A DNA stretch of 64,000 nt, taken from assembly GCA_963764725.1 (NCBI GenBank), contig CAVXTM010000001.1:128001-192000 (forward strand), read 5' to 3'. Under the pieces are notes generated by a model, which worked only from the letters and a program-made list of their open reading frames with translations, did no database searches and was not told the DNA's origin. Positions 1,356-8,761 of this stretch are shown here, piece after piece. The stretch comes from an uncultured Gammaproteobacteria bacterium (GTDB taxonomy: Bacteria > Pseudomonadota > Gammaproteobacteria > JACCXJ01). The position numbers and the translations under genes are program-made. How positions within the stretch are numbered: the first letter of the stretch is position 1; each line of letters opens with the position of its first letter.

Positions 1356-1634
1356 GTGATCCGCGGCTTCAAGCACAAAGGTTTGGGCCAGTTCTTTGAG
1401 ACCGGGTCCAGAGGAGGCATCCAGACACAACACGCTGAACGGCTGCGCCTTATTTTGGGCCGTCTGAATGCGGCAACCGCTCCGAAAGATATGGCGCTTC
1501 CCGGGGTGGATCTTCATGCGCTCAAGGGTGACCGGAAGGGTGGTTGGGCGGTGTCGGTAAGCGGGAACTGGCAGGTCACATTTAAGTTCGTTGGGAAGGA
1601 CGCTAATTTCGTCGATTACGAGGATTATCACTGA
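1356..1634 (+). CDS. higB: HigB (RelE/ParE-family) toxin
   Basis: [41 protein letters not shown]-terminus. Confidence 0.92.
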
Positions 1635-1647
1635 AGAGAGCATCGCA

Positions 1648-1935
1648 ATGCGTATGCACAACCCCCCTCATCCGGGCGAGATCATCAAATCCCTTTGCCT
1701 TGAGCCCTTGGGCGTGAGCGTCACGCAGGCCGCGAAGGCCCTTGGCGTTAGCCGCAAGACGCTCTCTGCCATTCTGAACGGCCGGGCCGGTATCAGTCCC
1801 GAGATGGCCGTCCGTCTTTCCATTGCGTTCGCTACGCCCGCTGAAAGCTGGCTCAATCAGCAAACGCAGTATGAACTTTGGCATGCGGAACGGCGTCGCA
1901 AGGAGCTTCGGGTGGCTAGGCTCGCCGCGGCATAA
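1648..1935 (+). CDS. higA: HigA HTH antitoxin
   Basis: [45 protein letters not shown]; downstream of toxin. Confidence 0.93.
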
Positions 1936-2970: not shown

Positions 2971-4179
2971 ATGAAAATCGTTATTGCCCCCGACTCCTTC
3001 AAAGAGAATCTTACCTCCCTAGAGGTTGCGACCGCCATCGAGCGCGGGATCCGCCGGGTCCTGCCCAAGGCGCGATGCGTCAAGATCCCGATGGCCGACG
3101 GTGGCGAGGGCACGGTGCAGTCACTGGTCGATGCCACGGGGGGCAGCCTGCTGCGAAAGCGGGTGCGCGGTCCCCGTGGCGTACTGGTGAGCGCTCGTTA
3201 CGGGATCCTCGGTGACGGCGAGACCGCGGTGATCGAAATGGCCCAGGCGTCCGGGTTGCCGTTAATCCCGAAAGCAGAGCGAAATCCGCTCGAGACGACC
3301 ACCTACGGTACCGGGGAGCTCATTATTGATGCCATCGCAAGGGGGATCAAGTCCATTATCATCGGCATCGGCGGTTCGGCGACGGTCGATGGCGGAACAG
3401 GCATGGCGCAAGCGCTCGGGGTAAAATTCATAGGCGCCAACGGTAAGGAGATCACCGCACTATGCAGCGGCGGAATGCTCGATCAGATCGCCAGGATCGA
3501 TATGAGCGGTCTCGATCCGAGGGTGAGAAAAACCCGAATCGTTATCGCCAGCGACGTGGATAATCCCTTGTATGGCCGGCGCGGCGCGGCCTATGTCTTC
3601 GCTCCGCAAAAAGGCGCGACCCCGGAGATGGTGAAGCTGCTCGATAGCAATCTCCGGCGCGCGGCGGCGGTGATTAAGCGAGATTGCGGCATCGACGTCG
3701 GAAAGCTCAAGGGCAGCGGCGCCGCCGGAGGATTAGGGGCGGGGCTGGTTGCCTTTGCCCGGGCGCGGATTAAAGGCGGCGCGGATCTGGTGATCGAAGC
3801 AACGCAACTAAAGCGCTACTTGAAAGATGCGGATCTGGTCATTACCGGCGAGGGGCGGGTCGATTTTCAGACCGCGTTCGGCAAGACGCCGGCAGGTGTC
3901 GCGAAGGCGGCCAAGCAATTCCGGGTGCCCGTGGTGGCCATCGGCGGGGGGCTTGCGGACGATGCTCGGGGGGTCTATTTCCACGGCATCGATGCCCTCG
4001 AAGCCGGGGCCGCGCGCGACATGGATCTCGCGGAGGCCTTGCGTCTTTCGAGGCAACACTTGGAGAACGCGGGTGAGCGCGTGATGCGCCTGATCTTAAT
4101 CGGAAAACGCTTAGGTCAACGCCGGGCCACGGGCGCCCTGCGGCCGGGCAAGCGAACGTTTCGCGCGAGTCAACAGTGA
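2971..4179 (+). CDS. glxK: Glycerate kinase (GlxK/GarK family)
   Basis: IVIAPDSFKE, PMADGGEGT, GIGGSATVDGG, GAAGGLG, ITGEGRVD.QT..GK. Confidence 0.93.
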   Translation: MKIVIAPDSFKENLTSLEVATAIERGIRRVLPKARCVKIPMADGGEGTVQSLVDATGGSLLRKRVRGPRGVLVSARYGILGDGETAVIEMAQASGLPLIPKAERNPLETTTYGTGELIIDAIARGIKSIIIGIGGSATVDGGTGMAQALGVKFIGANGKEITALCSGGMLDQIARIDMSGLDPRVRKTRIVIASDVDNPLYGRRGAAYVFAPQKGATPEMVKLLDSNLRRAAAVIKRDCGIDVGKLKGSGAAGGLGAGLVAFARARIKGGADLVIEATQLKRYLKDADLVITGEGRVDFQTAFGKTPAGVAKAAKQFRVPVVAIGGGLADDARGVYFHGIDALEAGAARDMDLAEALRLSRQHLENAGERVMRLILIGKRLGQRRATGALRPGKRTFRASQQ

Positions 4180-4853
4180 GTCGCGGATGCGTCGCTTTCG
4201 AGCTCAGAGAAGCGCACCGGCAGCGTTTCCTTGGTGGACAACCTGCCCGCGGGATCTTTTACCACGACGATGAGTTTTTGCGCATCGGCGAGCCCGGCGG
4301 GGATCACCATCCTACCACCGCGCTTGAGCTGGTGTAGTAGGGGTGGGGGGATCAGATCGGGCGCCGCGGTGACGATGATTTTGTCGAACGGCGCAATCTC
4401 GGGCCAACCGAAATAGCCATCACTGATGCGTGTTTCGATGTTGCGGTAGCCCAACTTTCCGAATCGGCGCTGAGCTTGCTGCGATAACTCTTCGATAATG
4501 TCCACGGTGTAGACCTTGGCTGAAAGCTTCGCGAGGACGGCCGCCTGGTAACCTAGGCCGGTTCCGATCTCGAGCACCGTGTCGGTAGCGTTCAGGGCCA
4601 GGAGATCGGTCATCAACGCAACGATAAACGGCTGGGAAATGGTTTTGTTATAACCGATGGGCAAGGGCGTGTCGGCGTAGGCGTAGCCCTGGAATTCCAC
4701 CGGCACAAATTCATGCCGCGGGATCTCGGCCATGACCTGCATCACGCGCGGGTCCAGCGTGGATTTTCCGATGAAATCGACGCACATGCCGGTGTGCGCC
4801 TCAATGTCGGAGATCATGTGCTGCTGCATTGAAGCGAAGAGCGGTTCATTCAT
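4170..4853 (-). CDS. pcm: Protein-L-isoaspartate O-methyltransferase
   Basis: PRHEFV, AYADTPLPIG..TISQP, VLEIGTGLGYQAA, APFDKIIVTAA. Confidence 0.93.
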   Translation of the reverse strand: MNEPLFASMQQHMISDIEAHTGMCVDFIGKSTLDPRVMQVMAEIPRHEFVPVEFQGYAYADTPLPIGYNKTISQPFIVALMTDLLALNATDTVLEIGTGLGYQAAVLAKLSAKVYTVDIIEELSQQAQRRFGKLGYRNIETRISDGYFGWPEIAPFDKIIVTAAPDLIPPPLLHQLKRGGRMVIPAGLADAQKLIVVVKDPAGRLSTKETLPVRFSELESDASATHC

Positions 4854-4949: not shown

Positions 4950-5549
4950 CTAGCGCTTTCCGTACTGCAGAGGCGTGCCCGTGCGCTGGGCATAGATATA
5001 GGTCTCCAGCGCCCGCATCTCAGGGGAATCCGGAGCAAGCTTTTTGCCCCGTACCGGATTTTCGATGCACCAGTTGATCGCGTCTCGCAACAGTGCGACC
5101 CGCCCGAGCTGGGCCTGAAATTTCGGGTAAGTCTCGGGGTGGGTATTCGATCCATCCGGATGGCACATATCGCAGGAGACGGCGATAGTGCTCTTTAGCC
5201 GATCGCCGCTGTGAAAGATGCGCGAGCCTTCGACGGCCAATTTGTACGTCTCTTGCTGCCAGACATTTACATCCTCGGGGGTAACGCTACCGTAAGTCGA
5301 TCCCTGGCCCTTACCGATGAGACCCTTGTTGTCGGCCGGAACCACCACCTTGTGCTTGGCCAACTCTTCGGCCATCCAGTCGCGTGCTTCGCCTCTGCGT
5401 TTCCATTGCGCCATGGTCGCGTCATCGGTGCCCGGGTCTTGTTTGATGGCGGCCGGGTAGTCGCCGCCCAGCTCCGCCGCCCGCCCCTGGGAGGACATCA
5501 GCGACACGAGCGTGAAGATGGCGCCTACGAGAAGTTTGAACGTGCGCAT
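4950..5549 (-). CDS. Periplasmic monoheme cytochrome c, SoxA/TsdA-like
   Basis: Sec-type signal peptide; one CxxCH (CDMCH); downstream YPKF and INWCI motifs resembling His/Cys-ligated SoxA/TsdA heme domains. Confidence 0.75.
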   Translation of the reverse strand: MRTFKLLVGAIFTLVSLMSSQGRAAELGGDYPAAIKQDPGTDDATMAQWKRRGEARDWMAEELAKHKVVVPADNKGLIGKGQGSTYGSVTPEDVNVWQQETYKLAVEGSRIFHSGDRLKSTIAVSCDMCHPDGSNTHPETYPKFQAQLGRVALLRDAINWCIENPVRGKKLAPDSPEMRALETYIYAQRTGTPLQYGKR

Positions 5550-5582
5550 TTTCTTATCCTCCTGAAACGATGAGGTGACTCC

Positions 5583-6716
5583 TCAATAACTTTGAAGATT
5601 AGGCGTCAGCGGCACGGCGCTTTTTCCCTCGCTCGTCAGATAAGCGCTCGCGACCTGAATTGGGTTGCGGTTCCAAAGATTGTAAAGTTTATCGACGAGG
5701 CCACCCGCTTTGACGCCGACCGATCCATCCCCGAGCGCGTCGTTGGGATTGAAGGGATCGGCACGGTTCATCTGCACCGTGAGGGCCGGCAACCCCTCGG
5801 GCGCATAAGGCCACGGCCAAGCGGTGGACAGCATTCCGTGGAAATGGATGTTGCCGATCCGATGGGTAAGGATCTGGTGGGTATGCCCGTGCACGACCAC
5901 CACTTGCTTGAAACGCTGCAATAAGGCCTGTACCTCCTCGGCGTCCTCAGTCCAGAAGTTCCACGGACGATAGTACTTGTATAGCGGGGAGTGCGAAAAC
6001 ACGATGAGCGGCGTGGCATCGGAATAGGCAGCGAGGTCGTTTTTGAGCCAAGCCTGCTGCTCCGTCCCGACCTTGAAGCGGCTCTGGATGCCGTTGTCGA
6101 GCCCTGCCACCGTCTGCATCCGCTCCATCCCCGTCATGCCACGCTCGCTCCAGAAGTCATCCTCCAGCACACTGTGGAGAACGACAAAGTGAACGCCCTT
6201 GTGATCAAACGAATAGGTGGGTTGACCAAACAGCGTGCGCCATTTCTCGCCCATATCCAGAAACCAGTCGTGCTCGCCGACCATCATCTTGACCGGCGCC
6301 TTGAGGCTCTTCAGGATCTGCGCGCCGAGCTCGAGCTCCAGGGGTTGTCCCAGTTGCGCGAGGTCACCTCCATAGAGCACGAAATCCGGCTGCGGCGCCA
6401 TGTGGTTGATGTCGTTGACGGCGCGCAGCAACTGCCGAACGAAGCGGTCATTGAGCTCGCGTTTATAAAGGTGTGAGTCGGAGATATAGGCGAAGGTGAA
6501 TGCCACCGGACCCGCCTCTCCGGTCGCGGCGTGGGCCACCTGCACCGGCTGGAAGCTGTGGAAGTTGAATTCCACACCGCGCGCGAGCGCGGCTGCAGCG
6601 GCGACGGCGGAGAGCTTGAGAAAGCTCCGGCGGTCGAGGTTTTTCAAGCCACGGAACAATGCCTCGCGTTCTTCGTAGTATTTCGTCTCGACGCTCTTAA
6701 CGATTGTTCGTTTCAT
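5583..6716 (-). CDS. Tat-exported calcineurin-like metallophosphoesterase
   Basis: GGAGG RBS before MKRT; twin-arginine DRRSFLK; motifs SDSH, GGD, GEHD, FSHSP, HGHTH. Confidence 0.88.
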   Translation of the reverse strand: MKRTIVKSVETKYYEEREALFRGLKNLDRRSFLKLSAVAAAAALARGVEFNFHSFQPVQVAHAATGEAGPVAFTFAYISDSHLYKRELNDRFVRQLLRAVNDINHMAPQPDFVLYGGDLAQLGQPLELELGAQILKSLKAPVKMMVGEHDWFLDMGEKWRTLFGQPTYSFDHKGVHFVVLHSVLEDDFWSERGMTGMERMQTVAGLDNGIQSRFKVGTEQQAWLKNDLAAYSDATPLIVFSHSPLYKYYRPWNFWTEDAEEVQALLQRFKQVVVVHGHTHQILTHRIGNIHFHGMLSTAWPWPYAPEGLPALTVQMNRADPFNPNDALGDGSVGVKAGGLVDKLYNLWNRNPIQVASAYLTSEGKSAVPLTPNLQSY

Positions 6717-6732
6717 CTTTGTGCCTCCAAAC

Positions 6733-8064
6733 TTACCTGGTCCCGCCCATGACCCGCTCTTCAAACGGCAATACGCGACGCTCGGCCATCGCCGTGTCGC
6801 GGAAGGGGCGCTTCGCCGCGGCCAGCCTGCGCTGTTCTGTAAAGGCGCGCTGATTTTGCTCCGTAAAGCGCGCGTCGCTAAGCGTAAACATGAACTCCAC
6901 GACCGCATCGATTTCCTCTTCGCTCAGGGCCAGCGGTTCGATGCCGCCGTCTAGAAACGGATTGGGCTCGCCGCCTTTGTTATAGTGATCCATCACGTCC
7001 CACAGCGTCTCCATAGACCCATCATGCATGTAGGGGCCCGTCAGTGCGATATTGCGCAATTGCATGGTCTTGAACGCCCCAATGTCGGCACGATCCTTCG
7101 TGACCATGAACCGGCCAAGCTCCGATAGATCGGTCTCGATCGCCAGGCGATCGACCGCTTTCATACCTCCTTCTTGCGCCAGGGCATCGAGAGCCCGGCG
7201 CGCTAGCTCTTCGAAATTTTGCTTGCGCGCCGCCACCCCGATATTGTGAAATCGATTGTCGCTGCCGATGGGAATGGAAGGGTTCATCTGGTGACAGCTC
7301 ATGCAGCGCCCCTTACCATTGAATAGGTTCCAGCCGCGCTTGGCCTCCTCCGAGATGGCCTCCGGGCTGCCCGCTAGGTAGCGATCGAAGGGGGCATCGA
7401 GAAACACGAAGGTACGCTCAAAGGCGGCGATGGCCCGCCCCAGATCGTCGTAGTTCGGAGCCCGCCCATAGGCGAAGGAGAACATGCGCTTGTATTCGGG
7501 ATCATCGGCGATCGCTGCCAGCGCCGCCCCCTCGTTGGCGTGGCCCATCTCGATCGGGTTGACGATGGGCAGTTTCGCCTGTTCCTCGAGGCTCGGGGCG
7601 CGGCCGTCAAGAAACATGGTTTGCAGCAAAAAGGCATTCATGGTGGTGGGGGCATTGCGCTTGCCCAGGGCGCCGTTTATTCCCTCCGAGACCGCCCGCT
7701 GGTCGGTAAAGCCTCGGCTGACGTCATGACAGGTAGCGCAAGCCACAGTGCCGTCCTTGGACAGCCGGGTTTCGAAGTAAAGCTTCTTCCCAAGCGCCAC
7801 CCGTTCGGGCGTCATTTTGTTGTCTTCGGGGATCACAAGTCGTTGCCAGATCCCCGGATCCACACCAGGCGGGGACTGGGTTACGTCGCGCTCCGGAAGT
7901 AAGCTCTCGAGGAGGGTTTCTTGCTGACCCATGTCGAGGGCGCCGTGGGGTCCACGCGGCCCTGCGGCATTCTCTTGCAACTGCGTATTGCAAGCCCCTA
8001 ACCACGGAAGCACCATCGTAATTAGTAGAAAAGCCGTGCGATTTCTAATTTTTTGGTACTGCAT
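6733..8064 (-). CDS. Lipoprotein diheme enzyme of the bCcP/MauG superfamily
   Basis: Lipobox LGAC; two CxxCH (CATCH, CMSCH); LGKKLYFETRLS, RNAPT, NPIEMG, LRNIALTGPYMHDGS. Confidence 0.9.
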   Translation of the reverse strand: MQYQKIRNRTAFLLITMVLPWLGACNTQLQENAAGPRGPHGALDMGQQETLLESLLPERDVTQSPPGVDPGIWQRLVIPEDNKMTPERVALGKKLYFETRLSKDGTVACATCHDVSRGFTDQRAVSEGINGALGKRNAPTTMNAFLLQTMFLDGRAPSLEEQAKLPIVNPIEMGHANEGAALAAIADDPEYKRMFSFAYGRAPNYDDLGRAIAAFERTFVFLDAPFDRYLAGSPEAISEEAKRGWNLFNGKGRCMSCHQMNPSIPIGSDNRFHNIGVAARKQNFEELARRALDALAQEGGMKAVDRLAIETDLSELGRFMVTKDRADIGAFKTMQLRNIALTGPYMHDGSMETLWDVMDHYNKGGEPNPFLDGGIEPLALSEEEIDAVVEFMFTLSDARFTEQNQRAFTEQRRLAAAKRPFRDTAMAERRVLPFEERVMGGTR

Positions 8065-8761
8065 TGGTGATCCTCTCACGGTTCTCTTGTCCACGCCGTC
8101 GGGTAAACCCATTCTCCTGGCGACACCCAGCGGTCGCCTTCACGACAAAATTATAACGCGCGCTGACTATTTTTGGATTTTCGTCCGTTGCGGAAGGCAC
8201 ATGCCAAAGCGACCGCACGTTAGAGCGGCTCTCGTGCAGCACGATCGTGATGGCGATTTGCTCGATCGCCGCGAGCACACAAATCAGCGTGGCCAGCCGA
8301 AACGGCCAGGTCGGACCGCCGGCGAACATGAGGAAGGCGGTGCTAGCAGCCACCGCAGCCGCCAACTTAACGCCCCAGGTGTGATAGGTGGGAAAGACCC
8401 TGAATTTCAACATACCGATGACGGCAGATAGGGCGGAGCCCGCGATCACCGCCATGATGAAGGGCGCTTCTTGGCGCATGATGTCAGGCCATAACCACCA
8501 CGCCGTGACCGGGATCGTGACATACATCACCACGTCGCCGGCGGTGTCCAATAGGGCCCCGAGTGCGGATTCCTGCTTCAATACCCGCGCGATGAAACCG
8601 TCGAGCGCATCGCTCAGGAACGCTAGTACGAGGACCGCCAAATAGGCCTTCGGCATCCCATGCCAAGCGAGCAGGCCGAGCACGGGCGCCGCGATGAACC
8701 GAAAGCAGCTCAGCAAGTTCGGCCAAGTGAGCACGCCGTTGATATTCTCCTGAAGTGCCAT
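8045..8761 (-). CDS. CDP-alcohol phosphatidyltransferase family protein
   Basis: PNLLS..R; DALDGFIAR...S.LG..LDT.GD signature; several TM helices. Confidence 0.9.
   Translation of the reverse strand: MALQENINGVLTWPNLLSCFRFIAAPVLGLLAWHGMPKAYLAVLVLAFLSDALDGFIARVLKQESALGALLDTAGDVVMYVTIPVTAWWLWPDIMRQEAPFIMAVIAGSALSAVIGMLKFRVFPTYHTWGVKLAAAVAASTAFLMFAGGPTWPFRLATLICVLAAIEQIAITIVLHESRSNVRSLWHVPSATDENPKIVSARYNFVVKATAGCRQENGFTRRRGQENRERITNAVPKN

Follow-up and report, generated by a model that had tools for sequence, protein, structure and literature searches.

Several described systems resemble the locus analysed here. MauG, which acts with methylamine dehydrogenase and amicyanin, and MbnH, which acts with MbnP, are His/Tyr dihemes with an intact peroxide pocket that engage a partner at the haem-2 face and belong to operons combining an enzyme with an electron carrier. 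The canonical bCcPs have a haem-1 Gln/Glu pocket, a link to peroxide stress and a Met at haem 2. SoxAX/SoxB and TsdA share a His/Cys c-haem domain, and in the former the partner has a metallophosphoesterase (MPE) fold. BthA of Burkholderia is a His/Tyr diheme without an inter-haem Trp, encoded beside PhosA, an exported protein of the phosphatase fold (PMC6405878). The flavodiiron proteins (FprA, ROO, flavorubredoxin) combine a hydrolase fold and a dedicated redox cofactor in stress defence, and their dimetal site consists of four His, two Asp and one Glu, with two His and one terminal carboxylate per metal and one bridging Asp (PMC12799149). Finally, a context listing, which assigns no function, places genes for a calcineurin-like phosphoesterase and a cytochrome c or cupredoxin near the ECF sigma factors ECF206 and ECF207 (PMC7826278 supplement).

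The window, a stretch of 64,000 nucleotides from an uncultured gammaproteobacterium, contains on its minus strand the genes of a diheme protein (P0001, 8064-6733, 443 aa), a phosphoesterase-fold protein (P0002, 6716-5583, 377 aa; hereafter the MPE) and a His/Cys cytochrome (P0003, 5549-4950, 199 aa). The ORF coordinates confirm the tight, co-oriented packing that had been claimed for them (gaps of 16 and 33 bp), and the proposed identities agree with the motifs and with the Pfam matches to CCP_MauG (181 bits, with two CXXCH motifs), Metallophos (64 bits) and SoxA-TsdA_cyt-c (PF21342, 43 bits). The three export signals of the original prediction were also recovered: an LGAC lipobox at residues 22-25 of P0001, RRSFLK at 29-34 of P0002 (Pfam TAT_signal 24.1 bits, cut-off 22.7) and a hydrophobic N-terminal leader in P0003. 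The lipobox did not prove family-wide; it was found in 20 of 72 clade-I loci by a crude motif test that included partial genes, and to judge from this it is a feature of the lineage rather than of the whole diheme family. A candidate -10 hexamer, TATAAT (8150..8155, minus strand), lies around 90 bp upstream of the diheme start and is kept in most close kin, but it was not called in a promoter scan of the window and a -35 match was not found. In a comparison with RNA runs at most 0.22 of the words were present in a run, and the runs represented contigs that cover the flanks too, so that neither expression nor co-transcription is shown.

The gene order diheme-MPE-cytochrome was present in 73 of 80 cytochrome-anchored genome loci, distributed over at least seven bacterial phyla, and six of the seven loci without the full triad were contig edges. 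Since the MPE gene lies directly upstream of the cytochrome gene in 79 of these 80 loci and the diheme gene upstream in 73, the association is not due to chance. Among 40 MPE-anchored genome regions the cytochrome followed the MPE in 37, the exceptions being two contig edges and one broken gene; the diheme was present in 22, while 8 had a cupredoxin-like gene together with cbb3-like N/O genes and 9 lacked both. The core of the module is formed by MPE and cytochrome, with the diheme replaced elsewhere by a cupredoxin/cbb3-like oxidase or by nothing. An electron carrier adjoins nearly every intact MPE-family member examined. This wide co-occurrence strongly supports the earlier claim of a single, dedicated and uncharacterised module. 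The phosphoesterases of the ECF206/ECF207 context match distant relatives with the same GEHD motif as P0002, but these lack both the WPWPY loop (see below) and the diheme.

Of 401 genomes sampled from the host's class, 39 contained close relatives of the MPE, and 4,867 of 5,086 candidates were relatives of the cytochrome. Most named members are annotated as 'cAMP phosphodiesterase CpdA/Icc' or 'thiosulfate dehydrogenase', labels that are unsupported by the active-site residues as aligned here. The ESM Atlas returned only unnamed metallophosphoesterase clusters, and a profile search of representatives many fragments and no names; a full-text literature search for the triad or its parts yielded, apart from the BthA paper, nothing but unrelated listings. 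Three long proteins that resemble diheme-MPE fusions were rejected as evidence, their junctions lacking a Tat motif and appearing frameshifted, in one case plainly garbled. Genes for PCMT, glycerate kinase and a CDP-alcohol transferase were discarded as parts of the module, since only 6-7 close kin have them beside the triad.

Haem 1 of P0001 (CATCH, 109-113) has Gln162, Pro166 and Glu172 on its distal side, each conserved in 64 of 64 dihemes as in MauG. Haem 2 (CMSCH, 254-258) is paired with Tyr361, which is present in all 64 clade-I dihemes, aligns with Tyr312 of MbnH and takes the place of the canonical Met; Asn137, Thr342 and Pro344 we take to be Ca-site residues. These residues make P0001 a His/Tyr diheme whose pocket for peroxide activation is intact. 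The best PDB sequence matches are canonical bCcPs (167 bits), chains of BthA length match weakly (60 bits), and P0001 scores below the cut-offs for MauG (TIGR03791, 211.6 against 443.85 bits) and MbnH (TIGR04039, 219.3 against 362.85 bits); the family is also related to hydrazine synthase gamma. In a quick tree of 89 rows, from which 18 redundant or partial rows had been dropped, 13 His/Met CCPs grouped together (SH-aLRT 100), outside the two clades of triad dihemes (99 each), which join with a support of only 68, so that clustering with the stand-alone peroxidases was not observed. BthA-type dihemes, labelled on the basis of genome family, length and neighbour, fall in a clade separate from that of P0001, and the 'MauG-like' rows are sub-threshold relatives, as no MauG or MbnH above cut-off was recovered. 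Several genomes carry a canonical CCP divergently beside the triad, and therefore the two are not interchangeable. BthA/PhosA differs further in that the PhosA-like neighbours possess the purple-acid-phosphatase motif GDYHY and GNHE and give no match to the triad MPE profile at E <=1, and in that no cytochrome partner has been described (PMC6405878). The position of the inter-haem Trp (MauG Trp93) is occupied by Leu152 in P0001; within the 64 clade-I dihemes it is Leu in 41 and Trp in 23, and in the MPE-anchored set Trp in 54 of 55. A Leu at this position should slow the transfer between the haems.

The MPE has the calcineurin-like fold with the D-x-H, GD, H and GH-x-H motifs found in GpdQ, Rv0805 and CpdA, and the predicted dimetal ligands are D80, H82, D118, E148, H242, H278 and H280, with H149 retained. 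GpdQ and Rv0805 are the nearest fold matches (model against GpdQ: Z 23.6, rmsd 3.0 over 237 residues), SoxB is more distant (Z 12.4), and the score against PRK11148 is 34.9 bits for a cut-off of 225. P0002 is single-domain, unlike the two-domain 5'-nucleotidase type, and gave no SoxB match at E 0.1. The distinguishing feature is the GEHD motif (6267..6278, minus strand), which puts Glu148 at the position of the Asn ligand (GNHD) of GpdQ and Rv0805. This Glu occurs in 69 of 69 MPEs and in all 132 aligned rows of a set partly pre-filtered for the motif, whereas Asn is retained in three further host ORFs with MPE motifs. By alignment to the GpdQ ligand positions, the four His, two Asp and one Glu of the flavodiiron site are thereby complete, and the two-metal site likely serves redox chemistry, as in flavodiiron proteins, instead of hydrolysis, presumably with iron, although manganese is possible. 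The likeness does not extend to the architecture: flavodiiron proteins have a metallo-beta-lactamase fold with FMN, while P0002 has neither a metallo-beta-lactamase nor a flavodoxin domain (Metallophos is its only Pfam match and its fold matches are MPEs), and the triad would combine a calcineurin-like putative diiron protein with haem c, in the periplasm and on separate chains. A literature search for GpdQ Asn80Asp returned nothing. Neither the change from GNH to GEH nor the peroxide-regulon context described below had been part of the original prediction.

A true phosphoesterase, which would repair or remove an oxidised periplasmic phosphoester while the haem proteins keep an Fe(III)Fe(II) site active and shield it from peroxide, accounts for the intact fold and for the invariance of H149 and D150, residues of the usual hydrolytic motif; moreover, purple acid phosphatases are redox-switched. 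We consider it quite unlikely, given the family-wide Glu, the electron carrier beside the MPE and the predicted covering of the active-site loops by the cytochrome. The Tyr ligand of the purple acid phosphatases (GDxxY) is replaced by Gln121 in the haem-linked types and by His in the ECF-linked type. The H149/D150 invariance is what a working phosphoesterase needs, and speaks against a peroxide-redox reading.

P0003 is a monohaem cytochrome c with a single CXXCH (CDMCH, 126-130) and a distal Cys161, which is found in 72 of 72 cytochromes. The fold is that of the SoxA/TsdA His/Cys haem c domains (Z 9.1 and 8.4; for SoxA, rmsd 2.2 over 87 residues), and the best match is to the N-terminal domain of SoxA. 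As the potential of His/Cys haems is generally very low, a role as electron donor or ligand switch fits better than one as acceptor. The fold brings to mind Sox-like sulfur chemistry, that is, SoxB-like hydrolysis coupled to a Cys-ligated haem that oxidises thiosulfate, sulfide or persulfide and passes the electrons to H2O2, and a sulfur oxyanion had indeed been proposed as substrate. Some loci have a matching context: one of Sinorhizobium meliloti adjoins soxYZ and an FccB-like gene, sulfate transport genes lie near L220 and L225, TauE adjoins L032 and a rhodanese gene is near L060. Nevertheless, sulfur genes flank only 2 of 60 distant loci, SoxYZ is absent at most loci, the gene annotated 'TauE' at type-IV loci scores as DsbD_2, and SoxB and SoxY were not found in the 97%-complete host. 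Furthermore, Arg109, the invariant Arg119 and Ser127, which have roles in thiosulfate binding by TsdA (PMC4423706), correspond to Gln147, Met/Ala157 and Pro165, and P0003 has the neutral Gln145, Gln147 and Ala157 where SoxA and TsdA are basic. Considering also the single haem and the size of the MPE (~315 aa when mature and GpdQ-like, whereas the SoxB chain has 542 aa), the sulfur option loses its ground and appears very improbable.

Modelling predicts that the three exported proteins form a single complex in the periplasm. The three-protein model scored 0.73, against 0.46 for the best control; 116 of 157 solved pairs and 2 of 215 mismatched pairs attain this mark, in a calibration that, unlike our model of three chains, concerns pairs. 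The model runs share at least 87% of their contacts and the partner pLDDT is at least 90. In the model the cytochrome, with the face formed by its CXXCH-Pro motif and Cys161, caps the active-site loops of the MPE, including Q121 three residues past the bridging Asp, via W252, W300 and W302, while the MPE docks on the haem-2 (His/Tyr) face of the diheme. W252 and the WPWPY loop (residues 300-304; 5805..5819, minus strand), the latter predicted to pack on the haem-binding motif of the cytochrome, are invariant in the haem-linked MPE types (WPWPY in 115 of 116).

The docking and the invariant Trp residues, together with a haem 2 like that of MauG, MbnH and BthA, would suit a MauG/MbnH-type maturation, as had been suggested before: the diheme would form bis-Fe(IV) with H2O2 and oxidise Trp residues of the MPE to a quinone or kynurenine cofactor, after which the matured MPE would act as a dehydrogenase with the cytochrome as acceptor. 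The Leu in P0001 can be read both ways, as MauG needs its inter-haem Trp but BthA forms bis-Fe(IV) without one (PMC6405878). The suggestion is weakened by the fact that all 15 type III/IV MPEs from loci without a diheme retain W252, W300 and W302 (on the two type-IV plasmids searched, a relative was not found either), by the orientation of these Trp residues, which face the cytochrome in the model, and by the sub-threshold MauG and MbnH scores. In contrast to the MauG and MbnH systems, the partner has a dimetal fold and is found without a diheme as well, and neither mau genes nor MbnP-family genes were seen among the triad neighbours scanned. Partner modification is possible, yet less likely than a role in peroxide defence, and as a full account of the locus we hold it to be unlikely.

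The genomic context points to peroxide. Within 1.5 kb of 29 of 60 distant clade-I loci we found genes for PerR-type regulators, OxyR, AhpC, Dps/Bfr or rubrerythrin, and peroxide/iron-stress neighbours also occurred in the MPE-anchored genome set (6 of 21 loci) and in metagenomes (18 of 52 loci); the counts include related genomes and were obtained with queries taken from triad loci. The control gave 1 of 40 other CCP_MauG loci, all from Alphaproteobacteria and one betaproteobacterial family. The position that we take to define the PerR type is Asp in all 38 Fur-family neighbours, and the divergent LysR neighbours carry both OxyR cysteines. OxyR-box-like sites score 13/16 in four of nine oxyR-triad spacers, a score reached by 0 of 200 shuffles of each, although they could serve oxyR autoregulation. 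No palindrome was significantly shared by the regions upstream of 23 PerR-type genes (at most 4 of the 23, with 2-4 in shuffled sequences). Stress neighbours are missing from about half of the loci, and in the window's own lineage a peroxide regulator adjoins 0 of 10 near-kin loci, three of which have the divergent canonical CCP; an OxyR box was not found upstream in the window and ten kin. The host has a KatG-type enzyme, for which reason the idea that the triad replaces catalase was dropped, and a monofunctional catalase was not found in it. The missing regulator and OxyR box in this lineage, the host KatG, Leu152, the low-potential His/Cys haem and the S. meliloti locus beside soxYZ stand as observations against a peroxide reading.

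On balance, we give about an even chance to a periplasmic peroxide-defence oxidoreductase in which the dimetal site passes electrons to a peroxide-reducing haem. The MPE would take electrons from a small substrate and hand them via haem 2 to haem 1, where the diheme would reduce H2O2 to water; this direction is inferred because each identifiable variable partner (the diheme peroxidase, the cupredoxin with cbb3-like oxidase, the cupredoxin alone) is an electron acceptor. Our single best guess for the substrate is H2O2 itself, followed by superoxide and Fe(II). The first would amount to a catalase split over several proteins, with the diiron MPE, capped by the Cys-ligated haem, oxidising H2O2 to O2 and the MauG-type diheme reducing a second H2O2, while in rhizobial-type loci the core would feed a dedicated cbb3-like oxidase; this specific version we regard as rather doubtful. 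If it holds, peroxide would be a respiratory electron donor in the rhizobial-type loci, and a superfamily known for hydrolases would include a dedicated oxidoreductase.

Electrons could also run in the reverse direction, from the low-potential His/Cys haem to a flavodiiron-like diiron site that reduces NO, O2 or H2O2, with the diheme as a parallel scavenger. The ligand set is that of the flavodiiron NO/O2 reductases and the cytochrome caps the site; the kinship of the diheme to hydrazine synthase gamma and the pmoA/amoA-family genes of the host are in line with it as well, and OxyR also senses NO. Nevertheless this appears improbable, as a conserved quinol dehydrogenase or other electron source was not found at the loci, the identifiable partners are sinks, and no NO-reductase or NO-sensor genes were seen among 315 neighbour proteins scanned.

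Should the peroxide-defence oxidoreductase be correct, it would add an unrecognised branch to PerR/OxyR-type peroxide defence and provide an orphan clade of MauG-like dihemes with a substrate-side partner, and a second hydrolase fold would have converged on the flavodiiron ligand set via one residue. The module is widespread, and members are carried by cultured strains of Methylocystis, Nitrosococcus halophilus and S. meliloti.

The genes for the diheme protein (P0001, 443 aa, 8064-6733), the metallophosphoesterase-fold protein (MPE; P0002, 377 aa, 6716-5583) and the His/Cys cytochrome (P0003, 199 aa, 5549-4950) all lie on the minus strand, separated by 16 and 33 bp, which confirms the operon as a co-oriented and closely spaced three-gene set. 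The Pfam matches were CCP_MauG (181 bits), Metallophos plus TAT_signal (64 and 24 bits) and SoxA-TsdA_cyt-c (43 bits), respectively, and none of the triad proteins reached an NCBIfam equivalog cut-off. A CDP-alcohol phosphatidyltransferase ORF on the same strand (8045-8761, 238 aa) shares 20 bp with the start of the diheme gene; the homolog in a close relative has 214 aa, and the longer ORF probably arose by a local deletion that took out the stop. A gene for the repair enzyme protein-L-isoaspartate methyltransferase (4170-4853, minus strand) follows the triad at 96 bp, a linkage found in 7 close kin only. Two adjacent short ORFs (1356-1935, plus strand) resemble, by eye, a toxin-antitoxin pair, presumably of the HigBA type. 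The host genome is 97% complete and carries AMO/pMMO-family genes (three loci, on C18, C16 and C3, one split in two pieces), and its triad proteins share 90-95% identity with their counterparts in 'Chromatiales bacterium USCg_Taylor'; the host is therefore probably an upland-soil-cluster-gamma-type methanotroph.

A search with the cytochrome against one-genome-per-species contigs recovered a relative in 374 of 502 candidate stretches. Among the best 80 of these 374, the MPE gene was directly upstream of the cytochrome gene in 79 and the diheme gene upstream in 73, spread, by record title, over seven phyla (Pseudomonadota, Myxococcota, Ca. Binatota, Planctomycetota, Acidobacteriota, Spirochaetota and Thermodesulfobacteriota), and the predicted co-occurrence of all three genes thus held. 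The exceptions were six contig edges, a truncated copy (L051) and a spread-out locus (L081); no fourth gene was common to the 80 loci in general. Within the host family 12 of 14 other genomes gave a match, a tally that takes in the unpublished genomes G001 and G009; apart from this tally and the class-wide one given next, the two genomes underlie none of the claims made here. A second search used an MPE of the second clade as query, to avoid anchoring on one gene, and yielded matches at E <=1e-60 in 39 of 401 genomes of the host class (G009 included) and in 4 of 351 of one alphaproteobacterial order. From these, 40 MPE-anchored regions were fetched, leaving out four genomes already covered. 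The cytochrome followed the MPE in 37 and a diheme gene was upstream in 22; eight regions had a cupredoxin-like gene and cbb3-like N/O genes instead (type IV), nine had neither diheme nor cupredoxin/cbb3-like genes (type III) and one was broken. In 80 metagenome loci the cytochrome followed the MPE in 74 (the other six were edges); a diheme preceded it in 70, nine of the remaining loci being edges and one lacking it outright. More distant MPE relatives (~30-40% identity) adjoin a cupredoxin gene, often with an ECF sigma/anti-sigma pair. Given these counts and relatives, the fixed unit is the MPE plus an electron carrier, with the diheme protein as the commonest third partner.

The type IV cluster (L119:7020-14147, L230, L232, L233, L236-L240) comprises the cupredoxin-like gene (CxxHxxM), MPE, His/Cys cytochrome, an atypical cbb3 subunit I (211 of 583 bits for ccoN), a three-haem subunit II and a DsbD_2 protein, often with SCO and hemA, and looks like an uncharacterised, dedicated oxidase branch. 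In type III (L225-L229), MPE and cytochrome are followed at five loci by an Lcl-C domain gene and at two by one for a cytochrome c554-like multihaem protein; seven MPEs of this type carry Cys208 and Gln255. Decayed or rearranged copies include a truncated MPE without diheme (L051), spread-out genes (L081), a lone MPE among transposases (L117), an MPE-cytochrome pair without diheme (L138), a duplicated pair (L214) and a frameshifted MPE (L235).

Within the diheme protein, Gln162, Pro166 and Glu172 of the haem-1 pocket as well as Tyr361 were present in 64/64 aligned sequences. The counterpart of Tyr361 in the MbnH chain 6e1c is Tyr312, which we take to be a haem ligand. By this alignment haem 2 of P0001 is of the His/Tyr type, as described for MauG and BthA in the accessible part of PMC6405878. 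The inter-haem Trp position is occupied by Leu in P0001 and in 41 of the 64 clade-I (window-type) proteins, but in the MPE-anchored set 54 of 55 dihemes keep the Trp. Maturation of Trp residues in a partner, as by MauG, would be a rather unlikely role. In a quick maximum-likelihood tree (89 rows) the canonical His/Met CCPs formed one clade (support 100), apart from the triad dihemes, which formed two (99 each, joined at 68), with the BthA-like proteins far away. Canonical CCP genes adjoin the triad divergently in several genomes. The clade-I dihemes share an HG-x3-M-x2-Q motif near the mature N-terminus (7900-7950, residues 40-48 of P0001), which lay outside the chain used for the complex model, and the host encodes a second, unrelated His/Tyr CCP_MauG protein (G000:C11:118268-119224) with His at the inter-haem position.

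The P0003 model (pLDDT 87) matched the N-terminal SoxA domain (Z 9.1) and TsdA (Z 8.3-8.4), and Cys161 was present in 72/72 cytochromes. P0003 has this His/Cys fold in common with SoxA and TsdA, but not the Arg and Ser residues that contact thiosulfate, which are, in the accessible text of PMC4423706, Arg119 (invariant in TsdA and SoxA), Arg109 and Ser127. The positions hold Ala/Met157, Gln147 (72/72) and Pro165 (69/72), and Gln145 is the counterpart of a SoxA Arg located 16 residues ahead of the Cys. Searches of the host genome found neither SoxB nor SoxY, nor another SoxA/TsdA match, and the SoxB fold is distant from that of P0002 (Z 12.4). One S. meliloti locus does adjoin soxYZ and an FccB-like gene, which runs counter to the peroxide pattern described below, but sulfur-gene queries matched at only 2 of 60 distant clade-I loci and at none of 21 MPE-anchored, 52 metagenome, 10 near-kin and 40 control loci. 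The sulfur-oxyanion option of the original prediction has thus become very improbable.

The AlphaFold model of P0002 (pLDDT 84) is closest to GpdQ (Z 23.6, rmsd 3.0, 237 residues), followed by Rv0805 (Z 22.2). The ligand positions predicted from the GpdQ alignment (D80, H82, D118, E148, H242, H278 and H280) were invariant in 69/69 sequences. E148 stands where the GpdQ-type GNHD has Asn. Of 116 MPE ORFs in the second set, 115 carry GEHD, as do the ECF-linked relatives, whereas Asn is retained in a further three host ORFs with an MPE motif. The predicted ligands would give each metal two His and a terminal carboxylate, with an Asp as bridge, the set described for flavodiiron proteins in the accessible part of PMC12799149. 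We infer that the MPE site binds iron and does redox chemistry. The likeness to flavodiiron proteins is confined to this ligand set, and a flavodiiron-like reductase appears improbable. The MPE may still act in hydrolysis, since H149 and D150 are invariant; this also favours a redox-switched phosphoesterase, which we nevertheless regard as quite doubtful. W252 is invariant in all five MPE types, and W300-P-W302-P-Y in the four haem-linked types, being absent from the cupredoxin/ECF type. The clade-I MPEs have a conserved 28-residue extension ahead of the twin arginines of the Tat leader (6630-6716), of a kind that might bind a chaperone.

A three-chain assembly was predicted with ESMFold2 in one job (all mature chains, MPE as partner; protein chains only, diheme residues 41-64 left out). 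The complex scored 0.73, against at best 0.46 for controls with the diheme replaced and 0.00 twice with the MPE replaced; in the calibration, which was unlike a three-chain job, 116 of 157 solved pairs and 2 of 215 mismatched pairs attained 0.73. Runs agreed in at least 87% of contacts, with partner pLDDT of at least 90. C129, P131, D132, Q134 and N135 of the cytochrome (full-length numbering) are predicted to contact W252, W300, W302 and P303 of the MPE, W160/C161 fall within the same interface, and residue 123 contacts Q121, three residues past the bridging Asp. As these contacts fall on active-site loops, the cytochrome in the model would form a cap over the metal site. The diheme side of the modelled interface consists of S256 of the haem-2 CXXCH, the loop 367-377 after Tyr361 and the C-terminal tail 429-440, which packs on MPE helix 94-101.

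Neighbours were inventoried by Pfam scan (123 first neighbours, 95 of 113 second neighbours and 97 of 167 neighbours of the MPE-anchored loci) and counted by tblastn within 1.5 kb of loci with a diheme and at least 1.5 kb of flank. Among the distant clade-I loci, 29 of 60 were flanked by stress genes (Fur-family, OxyR, AhpC, ferritin/Dps, rubrerythrin, VIT1, catalase), as were 6 of 21 diheme-type loci of the MPE-anchored set and 18 of 52 from metagenomes, against 0 of 10 near-kin loci and 1 of 40 CCP_MauG loci taken as controls, counts that include non-independent kin, rest on queries taken from triad loci and use taxonomically narrow controls. In each of the 38 Fur-family neighbours, the residue that we assume to separate PerR from Fur is Asp; in six of nine scanned, PerR models were the sole matches at E 1e-25, all under cut-off. 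The LysR neighbours carry both OxyR cysteines. Scored against an OxyR-box consensus, nine spacers gave 13/16 in four cases, 11-12 in two and no significant site in three; the window contained no such site.

The sequences establish the operon, the motifs, the ligand set and the neighbourhood, and the three-chain assembly is a prediction. In bCcPs electrons enter at the C-terminal haem, and it is at this haem of the diheme protein that the MPE is predicted to dock. No conserved electron source was found at the triad/MPE loci, and the partners found instead of the diheme (cupredoxin, cbb3-like oxidase) likewise accept electrons. Considering these points, the MPE-cytochrome core would most likely oxidise a small substrate and pass electrons on, here to H2O2, a reading to which we give about an even chance. 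Because of the capped site and the peroxide regulon, the candidate substrates would be H2O2, superoxide or Fe(II); that H2O2 itself is oxidised seems unlikely. His/Cys haems are usually low in potential, which is the main unexplained point of the general reading.

The triad fell outside bCcP, MauG, MbnH, BthA/PhosA, SoxAX/B, TsdA and the CpdA-type phosphodiesterases. PhosA-like proteins encoded beside BthA-like genes carry GDYHY and GNHE motifs and were not matched by the triad MPE profile. The open-access literature, with subscription papers, bioRxiv supplements and the BthA supplements outside its scope (so that a mention may be missed), yielded nothing relevant beyond BthA/PhosA, in line with the proposal that this is not a characterised pathway; PMC12537917 is, in its accessible part, unrelated. 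The accessible part of an ECF re-classification supplement (PMC7826278) names, in the genomic surroundings of ECF206/207, a phosphoesterase next to a cytochrome c or a cupredoxin and gives no function. At six loci (L030, L031, L033, L034, L037 and L043) genes for an ECF sigma factor and a zinc-finger anti-sigma factor, the latter ending in a CXXCH motif, lie upstream of the diheme gene and are co-oriented with the triad.
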